Shown piece by piece: positions 11,548 to 21,255 of a stretch of DNA of 64,000 nucleotides. The notes under the pieces were generated by a model that was given only the letters and a program-made list of their open reading frames with translations, was not told the DNA's origin and searched no databases. How positions within the stretch are numbered: the first letter of the stretch is position 1; every line of letters starts with the position of its first letter. Made by a program: the position numbers and the translations under genes. Origin of the DNA: Gammaproteobacteria bacterium. Lineage in GTDB: Bacteria > Pseudomonadota > Gammaproteobacteria > SpSt-1174. The stretch is taken from contig JARRKE010000014.1 of NCBI GenBank assembly GCA_037388465.1, forward strand, positions 19,848 to 83,847. Reading direction: 5' to 3'.

Positions 11548-12021
11548 ATGAGCGCACCCAAGATCGGCAACAAGGCCCCTGACTTCAGCCTGCCGGCCAC
11601 CGGCGGCAAAACCATCAAGCTGTCCGACTACCGCGGCCAAAAACACGTCGTCCTGTATTTTTACCCCAAGGACAGCACCCCCGGCTGCACCCAGGAAGGC
11701 CAGGACTTCCGGGATCACTACCGCAAATTCACCGCCCGTGACTGCGTGATCCTCGGCGTCTCCCGGGACAGCCTCAAGCGTCACGAAAACTTCAAGGAAA
11801 AACACGGGTTCCCGTTTCAGCTGCTGTCGGACGAAAACGAAAAGGCATGCAAGCTGTACGATGTCATCAAACCAAAAAAACTTTATGGCAAAGAGTTCAT
11901 AGGCATCGAACGCAGCACCTTCCTGATCGACAAATCAGGTGTACTGCGCAACGAATGGCGCAAGGTAAAAGTCAAAGGGCACATTGAAGAAGTACTGGAT
12001 GCCGTCAAGGCACTTTCATAA
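11548..12021 (+). CDS. bcp: Thioredoxin-dependent thiol peroxidase (peroxiredoxin Q / Bcp)
   Basis: It has the [11 protein letters not shown] peroxidatic-Cys motif; 157 aa. Confidence 0.9.
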
Positions 12022-12141
12022 ATTCGGCGGGGCACTCACGCCCGGCCCGTCTCCCCGCCAGCCGGCGGACAGCCCCCTACTCCCCAGCATTTCCGCCCGC
12101 TACGGGCACCGCCATCCCTTTCCATTACGCGAGGCACCCGC

Positions 12142-13557
12142 ATGGTCCTGAAAGAGATCAATGGCAAACGTCTGTTCGTTCTCGACACCAACGTCCTGAT
12201 GCACGACCCCACGGCCCTGTTCAGGTTTCAGGAGCACGACATCTTTTTACCCATGGTCGTCCTGGAGGAACTCGACCGCGGCAAGAAGGGGGTTTCCGAG
12301 GTCGCGCGCAACGTACGCCAGGTCAGCCGCTTCCTCGACGAGGTCATGACCCAGGCAAGCATGAAGGACATCGACCGCGGCCTGCCTATCAATCCCGGCC
12401 GGCTGGCGGAATCGAGCTTCTCGCCGACCGGGCGCCTGTTCTTCCAGACCGAGGCCATGCACACCGAGCTGCCCAAGTCCCTGCCCGTGCATTCGGCGGA
12501 CAACACCATCCTCGCCACCACCCTGGCCCTGAAGCAGCAATTCGCCAAGACCAAGATCACGCTGGTCTCGAAAGACATCAACCTGCGCATCAAGGCCGCC
12601 GTGCTCGGCATTCACGCGGAGGATTACTACAACGACCAGGTGCTGGACGACGTCAGCCTGCTGTACAGCGGCACCGGCGAGCTGCCCGCCGACTTCTGGG
12701 AAAGCCACAGCAAGGACATGGAGTCGTGGCAGGAAAGCGGCCACACCTATTACCGGATCCGCGGTCCGCTCACCAAGGACTGGTTTCCCAACCAATGCCT
12801 CTACCTGGAGGATACGGACTCGCCTTTCGACGCCGTCGTACGCTCCGTGGAGGAGGATCACGCCATTATCGAGATCGTCCGCGATTACGCCACCCCGAGA
12901 CAGACGGTGTGGGGCATCAACGCCCGCAACCGGGAACAGAATTTCGCCCTCAACCTGCTCATGGACCCGCACATCGACTTCGTCACCCTGGTGGGTGCCG
13001 CCGGCACCGGCAAGACCCTGCTGACCCTGGCCGCCGGGCTGGCGCAGACCCTGGAGGAAAATCTCTACAAGGAGATCATCATGACCCGCGTCACCGTGCC
13101 GGTCGGCGAGGACATCGGTTTCCTGCCCGGCACGGAAGAGGAAAAGATGACGCCCTGGATGGGCGCCCTGATGGACAACCTTGAGGTGCTCACCAAGTCC
13201 GAGATCGGTGGCGACTGGGGACGCGAGGCCACCAACGACCTGCTGCGCTCGCGCATCAAGATCCGCTCGCTGAACTTCATGCGCGGACGCACATTCCTGA
13301 ACCGCTACATCATCCTGGACGAGGCCCAGAACCTCACCTCCAAGCAGATGAAGACCCTGATCACCCGCGCGGGGCCCGGCACCAAGGTGGTCTGCCTGGG
13401 CAACGTGGCGCAGATCGACACCCCCTATCTCACCGAAACCACCTCCGGCCTCACCTACGTGGTGGACCGCTTCCGCAACTGGGAACACAGCGGCCACATC
13501 ACCCTGCGCCGCGGTGAACGTTCGCGCCTCGCCGACTACGCCTCGGACACCCTCTAA
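12142..13557 (+). CDS. PhoH-like ATPase with N-terminal PIN domain (PhoH2/YlaK family)
   Basis: The N-terminal PIN-like region is LFVLDTNVLMHDP. Walker A is GAAGTGKT and Walker B is YIILDEAQN; 471 aa. Confidence 0.85.
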   Translation: MVLKEINGKRLFVLDTNVLMHDPTALFRFQEHDIFLPMVVLEELDRGKKGVSEVARNVRQVSRFLDEVMTQASMKDIDRGLPINPGRLAESSFSPTGRLFFQTEAMHTELPKSLPVHSADNTILATTLALKQQFAKTKITLVSKDINLRIKAAVLGIHAEDYYNDQVLDDVSLLYSGTGELPADFWESHSKDMESWQESGHTYYRIRGPLTKDWFPNQCLYLEDTDSPFDAVVRSVEEDHAIIEIVRDYATPRQTVWGINARNREQNFALNLLMDPHIDFVTLVGAAGTGKTLLTLAAGLAQTLEENLYKEIIMTRVTVPVGEDIGFLPGTEEEKMTPWMGALMDNLEVLTKSEIGGDWGREATNDLLRSRIKIRSLNFMRGRTFLNRYIILDEAQNLTSKQMKTLITRAGPGTKVVCLGNVAQIDTPYLTETTSGLTYVVDRFRNWEHSGHITLRRGERSRLADYASDTL

Positions 13558-13843: not shown

Positions 13844-14980
13844 GTGCACCGCCGCGGTCTCTTCCTGTGCCTGCTATTTGCGCTGCCCGCCGGTCTCGCG
13901 CCTGTCCCGGCCACTGCCCAGACCAGTGGCACACCGGCGCGCCCCTCCGCTCAATACCTTCCCTTTAAACGCCTGCGGGAAGGCATCAAGGGCGGGTTTC
14001 ACTGGGACAATGAGTGGGTGAACAACCTGAGCGGCGGCGTCCAAAACGGCAGCGCATTCGACAGCGTATTCCAGGGTGGACTCGCGGTGCAGACCGGTGC
14101 GCTAGGACTGTGGCGGAGCGGGCAGATTCAGGCCAGCGTGCTCGGTATCCGCAGCGGACAACCGAGCACCAAATACGTCGGCGACGTACAAGGGATCAGC
14201 AATCTCGAGGCATCGCCCGATTCCATGCGGCTTTACGACCTCTTCCTGCATCAGCCACTCGGCCGAACCACTGCCATGAACGCGGGGATATTCGATCTCA
14301 ATGCCTATTTCAACGTAACGAACGCAGCCGGGGCGTTATTGAACGCCTCTTTCGGCATCAATCCCGCCCTGACCCTGAACGTCCCGGTCTCGACCTACCC
14401 TCAAACCGGCTATGGCGCGATGCTCGCACACCGGATCGGTCACTGGACCCTTAAAACCGGCCTGTTCCAGGGCGACCCGGCGGCACGCGGCAGCCCGTTC
14501 ACCAACGGTTATCTGGCCATCGGCGAAGTCGGATACCACAAACCCGGCAATTACCCGGGCCGTTATCATTTCGGTCTGTGGTCCTATAACCAGCCCCGCA
14601 ACGGACTCGGACCGCATAACGACTGGGGTGGCTATGCCGTCGTCGAGCAGGTGATCACGCGCGGCCCGCACCCCCGCACCACCCTGTTCCTGCAGTTGGG
14701 TCATGCCCCCGACCGGGTGAACCTGGCCACCGACTATGTGGCCGGCGGCGTCGATGTGCACGCACCGGTGGCGAGCCGTCCCAAGGACCGCTTCACCCTG
14801 GGCTTCGCTCGTGTCGAGTTGCGGAATCTGAAACCGGAGACCAGCATCGAGGCGGCCTATATCGTGTTCGTCAGTCGCCACTTTTTTCTGGAGCCCGACA
14901 TCCAGCATGTCGTTCATCCCGGCGGTGACCTGCCGGATGCAACCGTGATCACCCTGCGCGCGCACCTGGAGTTTTATTAA
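13844..14980 (+). CDS. Putative carbohydrate-selective porin (OprB-like outer membrane protein)
   Basis: It has a signal peptide ending ATAQ, a beta-barrel-type composition, and an aromatic C-terminal residue (EFY). The family assignment is by resemblance only. The GTG start at 13844 is as annotated by the ORF track. Confidence 0.5.
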   Translation: MHRRGLFLCLLFALPAGLAPVPATAQTSGTPARPSAQYLPFKRLREGIKGGFHWDNEWVNNLSGGVQNGSAFDSVFQGGLAVQTGALGLWRSGQIQASVLGIRSGQPSTKYVGDVQGISNLEASPDSMRLYDLFLHQPLGRTTAMNAGIFDLNAYFNVTNAAGALLNASFGINPALTLNVPVSTYPQTGYGAMLAHRIGHWTLKTGLFQGDPAARGSPFTNGYLAIGEVGYHKPGNYPGRYHFGLWSYNQPRNGLGPHNDWGGYAVVEQVITRGPHPRTTLFLQLGHAPDRVNLATDYVAGGVDVHAPVASRPKDRFTLGFARVELRNLKPETSIEAAYIVFVSRHFFLEPDIQHVVHPGGDLPDATVITLRAHLEFY

Positions 14981-15004: not shown

Positions 15005-15523
15005 TCAGCACTGCAAGGCGGATTCATAGGCACCAAGACAGGAGGTGTCGAAGCAGACGAAAATCACCCGCTTCAGGTCGGGGTCCCGGCCCAGCCCTTC
15101 ACGGACCTCGCGTACCGCAATCATGGCCGCCTGGTCGGCCGGATAGCCGTAGACGCCGCAGCTGATACACGGAAAGGCCAACGACGCCAACGCATGTTCC
15201 CGCGCCAGATCCAACACATTGCGGTAGCAGGCGGCCAGCAGTTCCGGCTCGCCGTGATGACCGCCATGCCAGACGGGGCCGACGGTATGAATGACATGCC
15301 TGGCCGGAAGATCGTAGCCGAGGGTGATACGCGCCTCGCCGGTCGGACACCCCCCGAGGGTGCGGCATTCGCCGACCAGGCCGGGCCCGGCCGCGCGATG
15401 AATCGCACCGTCGACCCCGCCGCCGCCGAGCAGGGAGTTGTTTGCGGCATTGACAATAGCGTCCACTGCAAGCCGGGTGATATCGCCCTGCAGCAGCTCG
15501 ATACGATCTGCCGCGTCGGCCAA
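15005..15523 (-). CDS. Macro-domain protein (O-acetyl-ADP-ribose deacetylase, YmdB-like)
   Basis: It carries the macro-domain motifs [23 protein letters not shown] and GEARIT; 172 aa. Confidence 0.85.
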
Positions 15524-15526
15524 CCC

Positions 15527-16603
15527 TTACTCCACTGATTCGTCGAGCTGCTGATCCAGCGGTGCGGGCCAGGCGTTGAGTACCGCCTGAATCAGGGTGG
15601 CCAGCGGAATGGCGAAAAAGACGCCCCACACACCCCACAGCCCGCCGAACACGATCACGGAAACGATAATGGCAACGGGGTGCAGATTGACGACCTCGGA
15701 AAACAGCAACGGCACCAGCAGATTACCGTCCAGAAACTGGATGATGCCGTAGGCCAGCATCGCGTACGCGAAGTGCACATTCACACCCCATTGAAAGTAA
15801 GCGACCAGCGCCACAGGAAAGGTGATGATGGTGGCACCGACATAGGGAATGATCACGGACAGGCCGATCAGAAACGACAGCAACATCGCATAGTTCATCC
15901 CCAGGATCATGAAGGCGATATAACTGGCAACCCACACAAAGGCGACCTCGATGAACTTGCCGCGCACGTAGCTCGCGATCTTGTCGTTCACCTCGGCCCA
16001 CACCCTGGAACTCAGGGAGCGCTCCTCGGGCAGGAAACCGGTCACCCAGGTCATGATCTTGTATTTGTCCTTGAGAAAGAAAAAGACCAGCAAAGGCACG
16101 AGGATCACGTAGACCAGGATCGTGATCAAGCCGACTACCGAGGACAGCGATACGCTCAGAACGTGCTGACCGAGCGTAGTGATCTCGGTACGCAGGGTAT
16201 TAATGAGCTCGATCACCTGCGGTTCGCTGATGAGATGGGGATAGCGCTCCGGCAGCAGCATGAGCTGCTCCTGCCCCTTGGCGACCATATTCGGCAATTC
16301 GGAGAAGAACTGGGCCACCTGCTGGGTGATCAGGGGGATCGGCCCGAGCAGGATCGCAAGTATGAGCACGATGAACAGTACGAAAACGAAAACCACCGCC
16401 ACCATGCGCGGCACGCGCCAGCGCAGCAGTTTATCGACGGCCCCGTCCAGCAAATAGGCGATGACGATCGATGCCAGCAGAGGCGCCAGCAGGCGGCCGG
16501 CAAAGACCACCACCAGCAGACCCGTGATCAGCAGCAGCGCGAGAATGACGGCCTGCGGGTCCGAGAAATGACGTCGGTACCACTCAAGCAGGAGTCTGAT
16601 CAT
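15527..16603 (-). CDS. AI-2E family transporter (PerM/YhhT-like permease)
   Basis: 358 aa, multi-TM, with typical AI-2E N-terminal and C-terminal blocks. Confidence 0.85.
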   Translation of the reverse strand: MIRLLLEWYRRHFSDPQAVILALLLITGLLVVVFAGRLLAPLLASIVIAYLLDGAVDKLLRWRVPRMVAVVFVFVLFIVLILAILLGPIPLITQQVAQFFSELPNMVAKGQEQLMLLPERYPHLISEPQVIELINTLRTEITTLGQHVLSVSLSSVVGLITILVYVILVPLLVFFFLKDKYKIMTWVTGFLPEERSLSSRVWAEVNDKIASYVRGKFIEVAFVWVASYIAFMILGMNYAMLLSFLIGLSVIIPYVGATIITFPVALVAYFQWGVNVHFAYAMLAYGIIQFLDGNLLVPLLFSEVVNLHPVAIIVSVIVFGGLWGVWGVFFAIPLATLIQAVLNAWPAPLDQQLDESVE

Positions 16604-16974
16604 TCGTTCTCGTCGCGAAGTTTTCGATAATGCGTTTCGAACAGGATCTCGAGTTCGTCGATGACTTCCACGGCCGGGCGACCCTGCATGACATGCTGCG
16701 CCATCAGGGTGGAGGTCTCGTTGAGCATCTTACCCTTGTCGAGCATGTAATAACTGGCCGAGAGCCGCTTCATCGCCTTGATCACGCTCTCGCCTTCCTG
16801 GCGTGGAATCTCCTTGGGCGCGGGAATTTCCGCAGGCTGCGCTTCACCGCGTCCGCTGAGGAACTCGGCGAATTCCAGCAGCATGACACGCTGCTCGGGT
16901 TGCAGCGCCTTGAACAGACGGACCAGCCGTTTTTCGTCCGAACCACGATTGAGATTAGTGGTCAGCGGATTCAT
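16600..16974 (-). CDS. Small hypothetical protein (124 aa), translationally coupled on both sides
   Basis: It overlaps 4 bp with the downstream AI-2E gene and 20 bp with the upstream GATase-like gene. No motif was recognised. Confidence 0.5.
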   Translation of the reverse strand: MNPLTTNLNRGSDEKRLVRLFKALQPEQRVMLLEFAEFLSGRGEAQPAEIPAPKEIPRQEGESVIKAMKRLSASYYMLDKGKMLNETSTLMAQHVMQGRPAVEVIDELEILFETHYRKLRDENE

Positions 16975-17713
16975 CCATCTCCACCTTCAGATTGAACACC
17001 GGCATCTTGTGCCGCTCCTGCATCAATTCGCAGGCCTTGACCAGGCCTACCAGGGCGATATCCGTGGATTCCTGCATGTTGCCCCACTCCATATGCGCCT
17101 CGCCCAGCAGGTCGCCGATATTCGGTGGCGGGTTGTGCCCTTCCTCCATGAGTATGTCTTCCAGCATGCCGGGCTTCATTTCGGGACGGAACAACATGCC
17201 ATAGCTTTGCCCGGCGGTACGGATCAGCAGCCAGTGACCCTCGTCATCAACCAGCAAGGGTTCGACACCCTCGGGCAGCTCCACGTCGCCGTGATACAGC
17301 ACCAGCAGTCGGCGCCCGTCGAGGCTCGCTGCAAATTCGTCATCACGGCCGGCTTCCGTCAAATGCGCCGTGGTGAATTTAGCCGTATAGGCCGGCTCCA
17401 ACAGCGGCTTACCGCCGGCCGCCTCGGCCATCAACAGAGCCCCCATACCGATGCCGATAACCGGGCGATTCGCCTTTTGAAACATGCGAATCACGTTGAT
17501 CTCTTCATCCGCGTGCGGAACCTTGTCCCGATCGGCCGTGGGCCAGGCACCGCCCAGCAGAAACACACCGTCGTACTGACTGGCACTGCTCGGTAACGGA
17601 TCACCGATAAACGGGCGCACATAACCGTAAGCGATATTGCGGTGTTGCAGCTGGGCCTCGATCAGGCCCAAAAATTCAGCGTAGGTGTGCTGAAGGACCA
17701 GATAGTTCTTCAT
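16955..17713 (-). CDS. Class-I glutamine-amidotransferase-like protein lacking the catalytic Cys (predicted non-catalytic), with a C-terminal extension
   Basis: The nucleophile-elbow region reads PVIGIGMGALLMAEAAG, whereas the canonical GATase1 sequence is PILGICLGHQLLA. Cys is replaced by Gly and His by Ala. The start codon overlaps the LysR stop by 4 bp. Confidence 0.55.
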   Translation of the reverse strand: MKNYLVLQHTYAEFLGLIEAQLQHRNIAYGYVRPFIGDPLPSSASQYDGVFLLGGAWPTADRDKVPHADEEINVIRMFQKANRPVIGIGMGALLMAEAAGGKPLLEPAYTAKFTTAHLTEAGRDDEFAASLDGRRLLVLYHGDVELPEGVEPLLVDDEGHWLLIRTAGQSYGMLFRPEMKPGMLEDILMEEGHNPPPNIGDLLGEAHMEWGNMQESTDIALVGLVKACELMQERHKMPVFNLKVEMDESADH

Positions 17714-18654
17714 CGAACCGTATACTCCTTCCCGGTCGGCCGCATGGGCCAATCCGAGTTGTGTACCTCACAATAGCTGCGCGCGAAGTTGAGCAGTTCC
17801 TCCATGGCACGCAGGCGGAATTTCTGCCGCTGGCGAACGAACGAAAACGGCCGTTCCAGCGGCGGATCCAACGGCACGCAGGTCAGGATACCGAGCTCGA
17901 GCTCCTTCTCGATCGTCGCCCGCGACAGGATCGACACGCCCATGCCGGCCTGCACCGCACCCTTGATCGCCTCCGAACTGCCGAGTTCCAGGCAGACGTG
18001 CAGAGCGTTGCGATCGCCGCCTTCATCGATAAGGCGTTCCAGAATAACCTCGCGGGTGCCGGAACCCTCTTCACGGCAGATGAAGGGATAGGTCGCCACC
18101 TCCTGCACCGTGACCTGCTGCTTGTCCGCCAGCGGATGATCCGGCGGCATGATCGCCACCAGCTGGTCGACGCGGCAGACCTCCACCAGCAGATGCTTGT
18201 TGGTGACCGGCGCCTCCACCACACCCAGATCGATGATGTTGTTTTCGACCATGGACACGATGCCTTCGGTGTTCGACACCTTGAGACGCAGGTTCACATC
18301 CGGGTAACGCGCCTTGAAATCGCCGAGCAGCGAGGGAAGCATGTATTCCGCGATGGTGGTGCTCGCCCCCATCGTCAAGGCACCGCTGATATCGCCGGTC
18401 ATCTCCCGCACCGAATTCTCCATCTCCGCATACAGCTCGAAGATGCGCTCGGCATGCTCGAACACGCTGCGCCCCGCGTCCGTGAGACTGACCCGGTTGT
18501 GGGTGCGGTCGAACAGCCGAGTGTTGAAGTGCTCCTCAAGCTGGCGGACCTGGAAGGTCACGGCCGGCTGGGTCATGTGCAAGGCTTCGGCCGCCTTGGT
18601 AAAGCTCAACAGGCGAGCAACGGTATAAAAGACCTGAAGGCGGCGGTCGGCCAT
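17710..18654 (-). CDS. LysR-family transcriptional regulator
   Basis: It has an N-terminal HTH (FTKAAEALHMTQPAVTFQVRQLE) and a LysR substrate-binding domain; 314 aa. Confidence 0.9.
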   Translation of the reverse strand: MADRRLQVFYTVARLLSFTKAAEALHMTQPAVTFQVRQLEEHFNTRLFDRTHNRVSLTDAGRSVFEHAERIFELYAEMENSVREMTGDISGALTMGASTTIAEYMLPSLLGDFKARYPDVNLRLKVSNTEGIVSMVENNIIDLGVVEAPVTNKHLLVEVCRVDQLVAIMPPDHPLADKQQVTVQEVATYPFICREEGSGTREVILERLIDEGGDRNALHVCLELGSSEAIKGAVQAGMGVSILSRATIEKELELGILTCVPLDPPLERPFSFVRQRQKFRLRAMEELLNFARSYCEVHNSDWPMRPTGKEYTVR

Positions 18655-18787
18655 ATAGGGAGTTCTGCTGGCGGATAAATTCAGTTGATGCGCAGTCTAG
18701 CAGCAAGCCCCGGGATACAAAACCACAGCGATACTGATAGTAAGCGCCGGTCGCGCCCGCATGGCGATTGCGCGACAATATCGAGTC

Positions 18788-19360
18788 ATGAGCGAAGCAT
18801 GGAAAAAACTCGACCTGGGCGGCGCCGGCCTGCAGACCCTGAACGCGGAGCTGACACGTCGCATGAAGCACAGCAAGGCGGCCTACGGGCTGGCAGTGCT
18901 GTTCCCGCTCGGCATTCACCGGTTTTATCTCGGCTCCGTGTTGGGCGGCCTGCTTTATCTGCTGCTGAGCACCGCCACCCTGATCTTCTGGTTCGGGACG
19001 CACAGCCCGTATGCCTGGCTGCCCTTCGGGGCGGAGGTCCTGTTGCTGATCTTCGACCTGTTCTGGATCGACCGGTACGTGGTGAAGTACAACAAGGCGC
19101 TGCGGGTCCACCAGTTCCTGCGTTCCGGCACGGAACCGCCAAAAGACTACCGGGGCCGTTACACGGACGACAACAGCGAGCTGGACGCATACATCCGCCA
19201 GAAGGAACGTGAGCGCGGCGGACATCAACCCGTGGGCGCCGACAGTGGGCCCGGTGAATCCGGAGACCGGCCGCCCTCCTTCAACGAACAGGAAGCGATG
19301 CTGCGCGAACTGATCCGCAGCAACAAAGGGCGCAAGCCCGGCGGCAAGGAAGACGACTAG
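18788..19360 (+). CDS. TM2-domain membrane protein with a charged C-terminal extension
   Basis: It carries the TM2 signature GIHRFYLG within two TM helices. The ATG at 18788 is the chosen start. Confidence 0.7.
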   Translation: MSEAWKKLDLGGAGLQTLNAELTRRMKHSKAAYGLAVLFPLGIHRFYLGSVLGGLLYLLLSTATLIFWFGTHSPYAWLPFGAEVLLLIFDLFWIDRYVVKYNKALRVHQFLRSGTEPPKDYRGRYTDDNSELDAYIRQKERERGGHQPVGADSGPGESGDRPPSFNEQEAMLRELIRSNKGRKPGGKEDD

Positions 19361-19440: not shown

Positions 19441-21255
19441 ATGCAGCCCGGATCCGAACCGCAGTATTCCTCCCCCAAGCAAAAGGCCCGTTTCGACCGC
19501 GCCTTTTTTCGCGATGCCTGGCACCTGGCCAAGCCCTACTTCACCCATTCGGAGGAGCGCTGGGGCGCCAGGGGGCTGTTGCTGGTGATCATGGTTTTCA
19601 CCGTCGCCCAGGTCTACGTCGGACTGCGCATCACCAACTGGTACAACGCGTTCTGGAACGCCATGCAGCAGTACGACAAGGGCGCGTTCTGGCACCTGAT
19701 CGGCGTATTCACCATCCTGGCCCTGGTCAGCATCGTCCTTGGTGTGTACCAGACCTATATCACCCAGCTGCTGGACCTGCGCTGGCGCCGCTGGCTGACC
19801 CAGGAATATCTCACCCGCTACCTGCACGGGCGCGCCTACTATCACATGGAGGTCTTCAAGCGCGGCCAGGACAACCCGGACCAGCGTATCGCCGACGATC
19901 TGTCGTCGTTTTCCGCCATGACCACCAGCCTGTTCACCGGCATGCTGAACGCCGCCGCCAACCTGGTGGCCTTCATCGGCCTGCTGTGGGTGCTGTCCGA
20001 AAAGCTCATCATCCCCATCGGCGGCCACGACCAGAACTTCCCGGGGATCCTGGTGTGGGTCGCCCTGCTCTACTCGGTCGCGGGCACCTGGCTGGCCGCC
20101 AAGATCGGCAACCCGCTCATCGGCCTGAACTACCACCAAGAGCGGCTGCAGGCGGACTTTCGTTTTTCCCTGGTACGCCTGCGCGAGAACAGCGAAGCCG
20201 TGGCCTTCTACGGCGGCGAGGCACGCGAAAAGGCGAACTTCATGGACCGGTTCAACGCCGTGTTCGGCAACTACAAGCGGCTGATCCTGCGGCAAAAGGC
20301 CTTCAACTGGATGAACAGCTACTTCGGCCAGATCGCCATCATCCTGCCCATCCTGTTTCCGGCCATCGCCTATTTCGCCAAAAAGGTGAGCCTCGGCTAC
20401 ATCATGCAGGTCGGCGCCGCCTTCGCCCAGGTGCAGAATTCGTTCTCCTACCTGGCCAACAGCTACGACAGCCTGGCCAACTGGCACGCCGTGGTCGACC
20501 GGTTGCGCGGGTTCATGAACCTCATGGAGGAAGTGGAATCGCTGCAGTCCACGGAACACCAGTTGCGGCACCGGGAGGACGGCGGCATCGCGACCCGCGG
20601 CCTGACGCTTTACCTGCCCAAGGGGCAACCGATCATCCAGCGCCTGGATCTCGATGTCCAGGCGGGGGAACGGCTGCTGATCACCGGCCGTTCGGGCATC
20701 GGCAAAAGCACCCTGTTACGCGCGCTGGCCGGCCTGTGGCCCTTCGGTGACGGGGAAGTCGCACTGCCGCCGCGGGACGAAATGCTGTTCCTGCCGCAGA
20801 AACCCTATCTGCCGCTGGGCAGCCTGCGCACGGCGCTGCTTTACCCCCGTTCCGACCTCGCCACGGACGATCACACGATTCAACAGGCCCTGGAGGCGGT
20901 CGGAATGGGCGGCTTCGCCGAACTGCTCGGGGAGGTCCAGCCCTGGTCGCACGTGCTTTCCCTGGGGGAACAGCAACGTCTGGCCATGGCGCGGGTCCTG
21001 ATCACACGGCCGCGCTGGCTGTTCATGGACGAGGCCAGCTCCGCGCTGGACGAACCGACCGAGGCGCAGCTGTACCGGTTGATCGTCGAGGCCCTGCCAG
21101 AGGTCGCGATCGTGAGCGTGGGGCATCGCAGCACCCTGCTCGCCTATCACACCCGCCGCCTGCATCTGCTGGAAGGCGGGACGTGGGAAGCGGAAACGCT
21201 GGCCGAATCGGCGTCTATTCCCGGGTCGGCAAGCCCAGCCGTCGCAACGCCCTGA
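19441..21255 (+). CDS. Fused ABC transporter permease/ATP-binding protein of the SbmA/BacA-like (YddA-type) family
   Basis: The N-terminal SbmA/BacA-type TMD is followed by an NBD with Walker A (GRSGIGKST), the ABC signature (LSLGEQQRL) and Walker B (LFMDEASSALD); 604 aa. Confidence 0.8.
   Translation: MQPGSEPQYSSPKQKARFDRAFFRDAWHLAKPYFTHSEERWGARGLLLVIMVFTVAQVYVGLRITNWYNAFWNAMQQYDKGAFWHLIGVFTILALVSIVLGVYQTYITQLLDLRWRRWLTQEYLTRYLHGRAYYHMEVFKRGQDNPDQRIADDLSSFSAMTTSLFTGMLNAAANLVAFIGLLWVLSEKLIIPIGGHDQNFPGILVWVALLYSVAGTWLAAKIGNPLIGLNYHQERLQADFRFSLVRLRENSEAVAFYGGEAREKANFMDRFNAVFGNYKRLILRQKAFNWMNSYFGQIAIILPILFPAIAYFAKKVSLGYIMQVGAAFAQVQNSFSYLANSYDSLANWHAVVDRLRGFMNLMEEVESLQSTEHQLRHREDGGIATRGLTLYLPKGQPIIQRLDLDVQAGERLLITGRSGIGKSTLLRALAGLWPFGDGEVALPPRDEMLFLPQKPYLPLGSLRTALLYPRSDLATDDHTIQQALEAVGMGGFAELLGEVQPWSHVLSLGEQQRLAMARVLITRPRWLFMDEASSALDEPTEAQLYRLIVEALPEVAIVSVGHRSTLLAYHTRRLHLLEGGTWEAETLAESASIPGSASPAVATP

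Follow-up and report, generated by a model that had tools for sequence, protein, structure and literature searches.

A stretch of 64,000 nucleotides (nt) of DNA from a gammaproteobacterium (GenBank assembly GCA_037388465.1, contig JARRKE010000014.1, positions 19,848 to 83,847; here termed 'the window') contains a run of five minus-strand genes that encode a LysR-type regulator, a protein with the fold of a class I glutamine amidotransferase (GATase) from which the catalytic cysteine and histidine are absent (the 'pseudo-GATase'), a 124-residue orphan protein ('p124'), a permease of the AI-2E family and a macro-domain protein. Comparison of this operon with related loci establishes, with high confidence, that it is layered: an old core consists of the LysR, p124 and permease (PerM) genes; the pseudo-GATase gene, together with a divergently transcribed gene for a TM2-like membrane protein, is restricted to certain lineages; and the macro-domain gene belongs to this genome only. 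The original prediction made for this DNA had taken all five genes for a single module, a view that their distribution does not sustain. The features concerned, with their coordinates in the window, are:

17710..18654, minus strand: LysR regulator gene (314 amino acids (aa); first gene of the operon; HTH_1 and LysR_substrate domains)
16955..17713, minus strand: pseudo-GATase gene (252 aa; class I GATase fold, Cys to Met and His to Arg)
16600..16974, minus strand: p124 gene (124-aa orphan protein; five-helix AF2 model)
15527..16603, minus strand: PerM/YfgO orthologue gene (AI-2E family permease, 358 aa)
15005..15523, minus strand: MacroD/YmdB-type macro-domain gene (172 aa; TTG start; the 3'-most gene of the operon)
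18788..19360, plus strand, divergent from LysR: TM2-like membrane protein gene (190 aa from Met10)
18675..18689, minus strand: candidate LysR-type (T-N11-A) box ATCAACTGAATTTAT, with one mismatch to ATA-N9-TAT

The description of the locus as five co-directional minus-strand genes with named families is upheld by the agreement of open reading frames, sequence, profile matches and public gene calls; an identical contig from the Joint Genome Institute carries calls for the same five products (314, 252, 124, 358 and 172 aa). The open reading frame list and the sequence place the start of the pseudo-GATase at the ATG at 17713 (its longest frame opens at a TTG at 17752), while the longest frame of the TM2-like gene opens at 18761, nine codons before a conserved methionine (MSEAWKK...), and the public calls and family conservation favor a start at that residue (18788, Met10). 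The statement that all five genes overlap holds for three of the four junctions. The LysR/pseudo-GATase and p124/permease junctions can each be read from the sequence as an ATGA overlap of 4 bp, and the pseudo-GATase and p124 genes overlap by 20 bp, with a GGTGGAG Shine-Dalgarno sequence 5' of the p124 start; the fourth junction is instead a 3-nt gap (TAA GGG TTG) between the permease stop codon (TAA, 15527-15529) and the macro start codon (TTG, 15523), which is preceded by GGAG. To judge from their sequence the permease and macro genes are clearly co-transcribed in this genome despite that gap. Scans of the surrounding DNA found no Rfam family between 11000 and 22000 and no sigma-70-like promoter between 14800 and 19500, where terminator-like matches were not above those in shuffled sequence.

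For the comparison, a scan of one genome per GTDB species recovered 198 relatives, and the best 80 loci were taken and searched by tblastn with the window proteins; together with 84 loci centred on more distant relatives of p124 (80 of them metagenomic), these make up 164 related loci. A LysR gene upstream and a p124 gene downstream of the pseudo-GATase were found in 78 of the 80 genome loci, an arrangement that, with the tight junctions in the window, bears out the operonic reading. The TM2-like gene lies divergently upstream of LysR in 63 of these loci, and PerM follows p124 in 50, mostly from Ectothiorhodospiraceae, Thioalkalivibrio, Acidihalobacter and Competibacteraceae. Overlapping stop and start codons recur elsewhere: at -4 or -1 for LysR/pseudo-GATase in 19 loci, at -4 for pseudo-GATase/p124 in 26 and at -4 for p124/PerM in 32 of 49, counts in which the choice of start codon favors short gaps. 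Orthologues of the LysR protein, 66-84% identical, head the same block in 148 of the related loci.

At the 84 loci centred on p124, LysR is found in 70 and PerM in 65, and the pseudo-GATase in only four; within the 80 metagenomic loci it occurs in three (L101, L117 and L163), of which L163 alone also has TM2. The usual layout around these distant p124 genes is LysR/p124/AI-2E/(PIN-PhoH)/bcp/(gcvR)/dapA/bamC, with a LysR protein 66-75% identical to that of the window; at loci without the pseudo-GATase only a short spacer, about 40 nt at the median, separates LysR from p124. Lineages in which the pseudo-GATase sits between the two genes include Thioalkalivibrio, Ectothiorhodospira, Acidihalobacter, Acidiferrobacteraceae, Sulfuriferula and other Burkholderiales, which are mostly sulfur oxidisers. 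The survey of the neighbourhood is therefore favorable to the original prediction for the LysR/pseudo-GATase/p124 arrangement and unfavorable to it in two respects, because the pseudo-GATase is dispensable to the wider block and the macro gene is found in none of the 164 loci.

That last count (0 of 80 genome loci, by tblastn, and 0 of 84 p124-centred loci, closest relatives included) marks the macro gene as a passenger in this genome, co-expressed with the operon and outside its mechanism. An earlier proposal had been that the macro-domain 'eraser' and the other four products form one module, in which the turnover of ADP-ribose or O-acetyl-ADP-ribose would be linked to export and regulation. 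The macro protein is indeed a bona fide member of the MacroD/YmdB type (Macro PF01661 at 162 bits; NF001664 equivalog at 233.6 bits, against a cut-off of 200), and its position 3 nt after PerM, with a GGAG upstream, speaks for joint transcription. The proposal is nonetheless very improbable, given the absence of the gene from every related locus, the lack of any overlap with PerM, and a G+C content (65.8% for the macro region, versus 57-61% for the four upstream genes) above that of the rest of the operon. In other genomes PIN-PhoH and bcp come directly after PerM, whereas here alone the macro gene and a gene for an OprB-family porin (13844-14980, opposite strand, just outside the operon and between the macro gene and PIN-PhoH) are wedged in between; the porin gene too is missing from this position in all of the related loci, and the two look like a local insertion. 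The pairing of a macro domain with an AI-2E permease is accordingly a peculiarity, and an accident, of one genome.

The permease itself had been described as an exporter-like member of the AI-2E family. It matches the AI-2E_transport profile at 234 bits and is 46% identical to Escherichia coli YfgO/PerM over its full length (356 aligned positions, E = 6e-112); PerM was the only E. coli AI-2E protein with which it was compared, and mutual identities among E. coli TqsA, YdiK and PerM are reported to be below about 24% (PMC9475539). The gene order of E. coli K-12 is purC-bamC-dapA-gcvR-bcp-[hyf, focB]-yfgO(perM), with perM convergent on bcp, and that of the window is bcp, PIN-PhoH, (porin, macro), perM, again with perM convergent with bcp. 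Because of this full-length identity and shared convergent position, the permease is, as far as sequence and position can tell, a PerM/YfgO orthologue that still occupies its ancestral site next to bcp rather than a recruited exporter. PerM has no known substrate and, even in E. coli, neither a known function nor a demonstrated export of AI-2 (autoinducer 2); its expression there reportedly responds to PurR (PMC9475539).

Such deep synteny invites the view that the genes share a place in the chromosomal backbone near bcp, dapA and bamC and no function at all. The region does belong to an old syntenic block, and E. coli PerM stands beside bcp even where neither LysR nor p124 is present. This account is nevertheless improbable: the genes are co-directional with overlapping stop and start codons in many lineages, LysR and p124 stay paired throughout Gamma- and Betaproteobacteria as their flanks change, and the pseudo-GATase and TM2 genes are present or absent together. 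In the window, the thiol peroxidase gene bcp and then a PIN-PhoH fusion (PIN_4 + PhoH) occupy 11548-13557. This pair belongs to the old bcp/gcvR/dapA/bamC gene order and runs convergently towards the operon in 25-29 of the 80 loci from genomes (PIN-PhoH in 29 and bcp in 25, scored separately) and in about 26 of those from metagenomes.

The GATase-like protein was originally said to have lost both the nucleophilic cysteine and the histidine of its catalytic triad, and this has held up well. The Pfam GATase model (PF00117) matches it at 29.8 bits (cut-off 22.8), and on alignment with a solved GATase (9xfs) its Met90 falls at the nucleophilic cysteine (GIGMGALLMA versus GICLGAQLIA) and its Arg176 at the catalytic histidine (FRPE versus FHLE). 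Among 118 full-length relatives the nucleophile position holds Met in 62, Phe in 33, Leu in 17, Thr in three, Tyr in two and Ala in one, and cysteine in none; Arg occupies the histidine position in all 118, as Glu178 does its own, so that Arg176-Pro177-Glu178 is invariant. Since both catalytic residues are missing from every relative, the loss of catalysis is family-wide, and by the measure of its alignment the pseudo-GATase is a true pseudoenzyme family, dead throughout. No conserved Cys, Ser or His that might serve as an alternative nucleophile was found at or near the elbow among those relatives; the serines and histidines that are at least 60% conserved fall at positions 9, 12, 30, 43 and 193 (the window protein has Ala12). 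The pocket is otherwise well kept, with oxyanion Gly55, elbow Gly89 and Gly91, and Arg176, Pro177 and Glu178 all essentially invariant across the family, a pattern that suggests selection and that could be taken to mean that the protein is still an enzyme acting through non-canonical residues (for example Arg176/Glu178, or a Thr or Tyr nucleophile). With a nucleophile position that is variable and mostly hydrophobic (M/F/L), and with no Cys or Ser conserved at or near the elbow, that possibility must be considered quite improbable.

AF2 models were made of the pseudo-GATase and p124 as monomers. The pseudo-GATase model has the GATase1 fold (predicted local distance difference test (pLDDT) 88.3, predicted template modelling score 0.86), and its top fold matches are DnfC (8khs, Foldseek E = 1e-15), TM1158 (1o1y) and 3l7n. 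The nearest solved structures (DnfC 8khs, TM1158 1o1y, SMU.1228c 3l7n, 3m3p, MsGATase and GGP1) are stand-alone GATases and gamma-glutamyl hydrolases. Specific to the family is a helical extension at residues 181-228, followed by a tail, LMQERxKxPVF (residues 231-245; window 16955-17030), which is invariant across orders although modelled with a pLDDT below 50; such a disordered invariant tail may be a short linear docking motif or peptide. Neither Pfam nor NCBIfam holds a model specific to the pseudo-GATase or to p124. In public annotations the former goes by the names 'GMP synthase' and 'type 1 glutamine amidotransferase', and 'Crp/Fnr family transcriptional regulator' also appears among the names given to the pair. 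The names 'GMP synthase' and 'Crp/Fnr family transcriptional regulator' are, on the evidence of the sequences, which disagree with them, annotation transfers; the database names of the pseudo-GATase are misleading for a protein whose branch is conserved and non-catalytic and carries Arg where the catalytic His would stand.

The p124 protein of the window matches no Pfam or NCBIfam family. Its AF2 model (pLDDT 88.9) consists of an N-terminal helix pair, a proline-rich linker and a C-terminal three-helix domain, the last of which is strongly conserved (KRLSATYxMLD...HVMQGR...EVIDELE); comparison with the PDB gave nothing meaningful (best Foldseek E = 2.4, best hidden Markov model E = 0.4). An exhaustive profile search defined a family of 448 clusters at 50% identity, almost all of 110-150 aa and stand-alone. 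Longer matches, considered as possible domain fusions, proved to be P0240, a case of tandem duplication, and P0270, which is probably a frameshift. P0240 (230 aa) carries the C-terminal three-helix domain in two tandem copies joined by a Pro/Glu-rich linker, and because it is this domain that is duplicated, it appears to be the functional unit of p124. The N-terminal helix pair, and it alone, gives weak matches to DUF2281 (PF10047) in 22 of 30 relatives (best 3.2e-5); the window protein is not matched by the DUF2281 profile even at E <= 1. DUF2281 is counted among antitoxin domains (PMC12654330, PMC4963859), and p124 might on that basis be an antitoxin of the DUF2281 type within a toxin-antitoxin-like cassette. 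That idea is hardly credible: no toxin family is found in the neighbourhood, where the adjoining genes are LysR, the pseudo-GATase and PerM; the chromosomal position is fixed across orders, unlike that of mobile toxin-antitoxin loci; PADLOC returns no defence-system match for any of the six proteins; and what is conserved in p124 is its C-terminal domain, which bears no relation to DUF2281.

The regulator at the head of the block (HTH_1 at 83 bits, LysR_substrate at 172 bits) has as its best NCBIfam match NF040786, at 248 bits and so just under the cut-off of 250, and it scores 219 bits against the YeiE model (cut-off 480). Several of its relatives pass NF040786 and bear the name of that model in PGAP and KEGG, and by these matches the protein is assigned to the CysL/YeiE-like subgroup. 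An ATA-N9-TAT element (consensus cATAA-N7-TTATc) occurs within 150 nt upstream of LysR in 37 of 124 related loci, against an expectation from 300 shuffles of 6.4 +/- 2.4 (maximum 13), and most copies lie at -30 to -80 from the LysR gene. In the window the box is found 35 nt 5' of the LysR ATG, within the divergent intergenic region of 133 bp between LysR and TM2, a position that fits autoregulation by LysR and, where TM2 is present, a shared divergent promoter. A second element, ACT-N3-AGT, that had seemed enriched in the LysR/TM2 intergenic set proved to lie inside the LysR coding sequence and was discarded as an artefact.

The best explanation of these results, which we hold at somewhat less than an even chance, is an autoregulated LysR operon that controls PerM and in which the pseudo-GATase serves as a sensor or adaptor without catalysis; the mechanism taken alone, inferred as it is from comparison, is weak, and clearly more doubtful than the explanation as a whole. 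As envisaged, the CysL/YeiE-like LysR would bind the T-N11-A box in its own promoter region, would control transcription of the operon and, where present, of the divergent TM2 gene, and would thereby set the level of the permease. The pseudo-GATase can be viewed as a binding module because it appears to keep the scaffold of the pocket (the oxyanion Gly, the glycines of the nucleophile elbow and the Glu) with Arg substituted for His and a hydrophobic residue for Cys; it might bind a small anionic or gamma-glutamyl-type ligand, or a protein. Its disordered tail could then dock onto p124, LysR or the tail of TM2, passing a signal to the regulator or the permease, and the pseudo-GATase would in this way work with TM2, p124 and/or LysR. 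Possible precedents are ThnY, which aids ThnR, and the GATase1 sensor domains of AraC regulators, which the proposed role resembles.

The chief competitor to this explanation, less probable but to be taken seriously, is that p124 (with the pseudo-GATase, where present) is a cytoplasmic accessory, gating or assembly factor of PerM, and that LysR merely controls expression. It draws on the overlap of the p124 and PerM genes, in the window and in the 32 loci counted above, and on a general property of class I GATase subunits, which normally act by docking onto a partner protein. Several observations weigh against the regulatory explanation. In at least four loci (L082, L095, L097 and L149) p124 and PerM persist without a detectable LysR, a finding that also favors the accessory-factor alternative, and in three (L114, L125 and L127) p124 has neither LysR nor PerM and stands beside unrelated genes; because of these occurrences p124 may serve PerM, or act alone, instead of serving the regulator. 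(The neighbours at L125 and L127, which encode RsmB, EF-P, FadL and an AIR-synthase-like protein, are all unrelated and gave no functional lead. The AIR-synthase-related gene at L127:5381-6376 begins 12 nt after p124 and scores below the cut-offs for HypE, ThiL and SelD.) The box of the window carries its one mismatch, and the exact ATA-N9-TAT element is present in only 30% of loci. In about 30 loci with the pseudo-GATase, PerM is not adjacent; these loci (Betaproteobacteria and Acidiferrobacteraceae-like) keep LysR, pseudo-GATase and p124 and so count against the accessory-factor alternative as well, as do E. coli PerM, which lacks a p124-like gene upstream, and the co-variation of the pseudo-GATase with TM2 and not with PerM.

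The distribution of TM2 cuts both ways. Where the sequence extends 1 kb or more upstream of LysR, a divergent TM2 gene stands next to it in 54 of 71 loci that have the pseudo-GATase and in none of 34 that lack it (Fisher p = 3e-15, a value that ignores phylogeny); 17 loci with the pseudo-GATase, mostly from Thioalkalivibrio, have no adjacent TM2, and in a quick neighbour-joining tree of LysR the two types of locus intermingle at many points. The 17 loci, the disregard of phylogeny and the quick nature of the tree belong with the points set against the regulatory explanation. At the same time, the intermingling suggests repeated joint gain or loss of the two genes and therefore a functional link between them, although they lie on opposite flanks of LysR, and this co-occurrence is the strongest hint, if one read from gene content, at how the pseudo-GATase works. 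The TM2-like protein reaches 27.7 bits against the 27.9-bit cut-off of TM2 (PF05154) and is 'weak' in public precomputed matches; across 56 sequences it has a conserved N-terminal cytosolic segment, a TM2 core (FPLGIHRFYL) and a conserved C-terminal PSFNEQEAMLRELI motif. Directly 3' of it in the window, on the same strand, is a gene for an SbmA/BacA-like ATP-binding cassette transporter (ABC_membrane_2 + ABC_tran, 19441-21255), a proximity that is not conserved in other loci. Upstream of LysR, on the same strand, a gene for an AcrB-type resistance-nodulation-division pump is found in about 26 loci of both types (for example L140:45-3218 and L079:1795-5037), and a cut AcrB-family gene is called some 3.7 kb before LysR in the identical public contig (L166:1-1317, a copy of the window contig).

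A bolder form of the regulatory explanation casts the pseudo-GATase as a receptor with a retained gamma-glutamyl pocket that, with TM2 and p124, would switch the CysL-like LysR that sets the level of PerM. It appeals to the gamma-glutamyl hydrolases DnfC, SpuA and GGP1 as the folds nearest to the pseudo-GATase, and supposes that the ligand would be a gamma-glutamyl thiol or another anionic metabolite in sulfur oxidisers. Receptor and ligand, taken jointly, make up a long shot, which if true would provide a physiological role for PerM and define a new accessory system, made up of three proteins, that serves a LysR regulator.

The significance of the locus lies largely in PerM, which gave a large transporter family its name: directly upstream of it, a dedicated and highly conserved LysR (identity of 66-84% between orders) and the gene for a small partner protein offer an experimental handle on it. 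The joint presence or absence of the pseudo-GATase and TM2 provides a case in which the conversion of an enzyme fold into a signalling component can be tested. As to novelty, the assertion that this is 'not a described module' stands to the extent that no description was found in literature on the gene combination, DUF2281, the AI-2E/PerM family or GATase-domain regulators (literature on PDB 9XFS likewise held nothing relevant); it fails for the macro/AI-2E pairing, which is not a conserved entity.

Comparison with characterized systems places each component among familiar relatives. The stand-alone class I GATases (GATase1_1/PRK07053: DnfC 8khs, TM1158 1o1y, SMU.1228c 3l7n, 3m3p and 9xfs), among which DnfC is catalytically active, in the dirammox pathway (PMC11440038), have the same fold and length as the pseudo-GATase (TM-score 0.71-0.77 normalised to the query and 0.76-0.84 to the target, at 18-25% identity) and share with it an N-terminal H-x-x-x-E-x-L-G, the oxyanion Gly, a G-x-X-x-G elbow and H/R-x-E. 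Unlike them, the pseudo-GATase has M, F or L for Cys, an invariant Arg for His and, towards the C-terminus, a helical extension and a tail that is invariant yet disordered. The macro protein shares with the YmdB/MacroD O-acetyl-ADP-ribose deacetylases both the equivalog match and the NAAN...GGGVDGAIH motif region; it is itself ordinary and odd only in its placement after perM, in this genome only. E. coli PerM (AI-2E, formerly the PerM family, Transporter Classification 2.A.86) resembles the window permease in sequence and in its position convergent with bcp, and differs in that no LysR or p124 gene lies upstream and bepA is divergent there. The LysR protein scores best against the subfamilies of CysL (YwfK), YeiE and the 'selenium metabolism-associated' regulators (NF040786), but falls just under the equivalog cut-off of NF040786 and far below the YeiE cut-off, and has no cysJI or selenium genes nearby.

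Two systems come closest to the role proposed for the pseudo-GATase. The GATRs (GbdR, CdhR and CahR) are regulators of the AraC family whose N-terminal domain is a GATase1-like sensor (10.1101/2021.11.02.466972; PMC5806209); a fold of the GATase1 type there senses instead of transferring amide groups and is coupled to a transcription factor, as the pseudo-GATase would be, a likeness drawn at the level of fold class only. The sensor of a GATR forms one chain with an AraC DNA-binding domain, whereas the pseudo-GATase is a separate polypeptide encoded beside LysR. In Sphingopyxis granuli, the LysR-type activator ThnR is aided through protein-protein interaction by the ferredoxin reductase-like ThnY (PMC3771892), which likewise pairs an activator of that type with a regulator derived from an enzyme family; the interaction is presumed in the present case, and the folds are unrelated and the ThnR/ThnY pathway is tetralin catabolism. 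Against this background there is nothing mechanistically startling in the locus: the conserved unit of LysR, p124 and PerM and the pairing of pseudo-GATase with TM2 are uncharacterised and lend themselves to testing, and the pseudo-GATase is a new, non-catalytic version of a known fold within an ordinary LysR-controlled operon.

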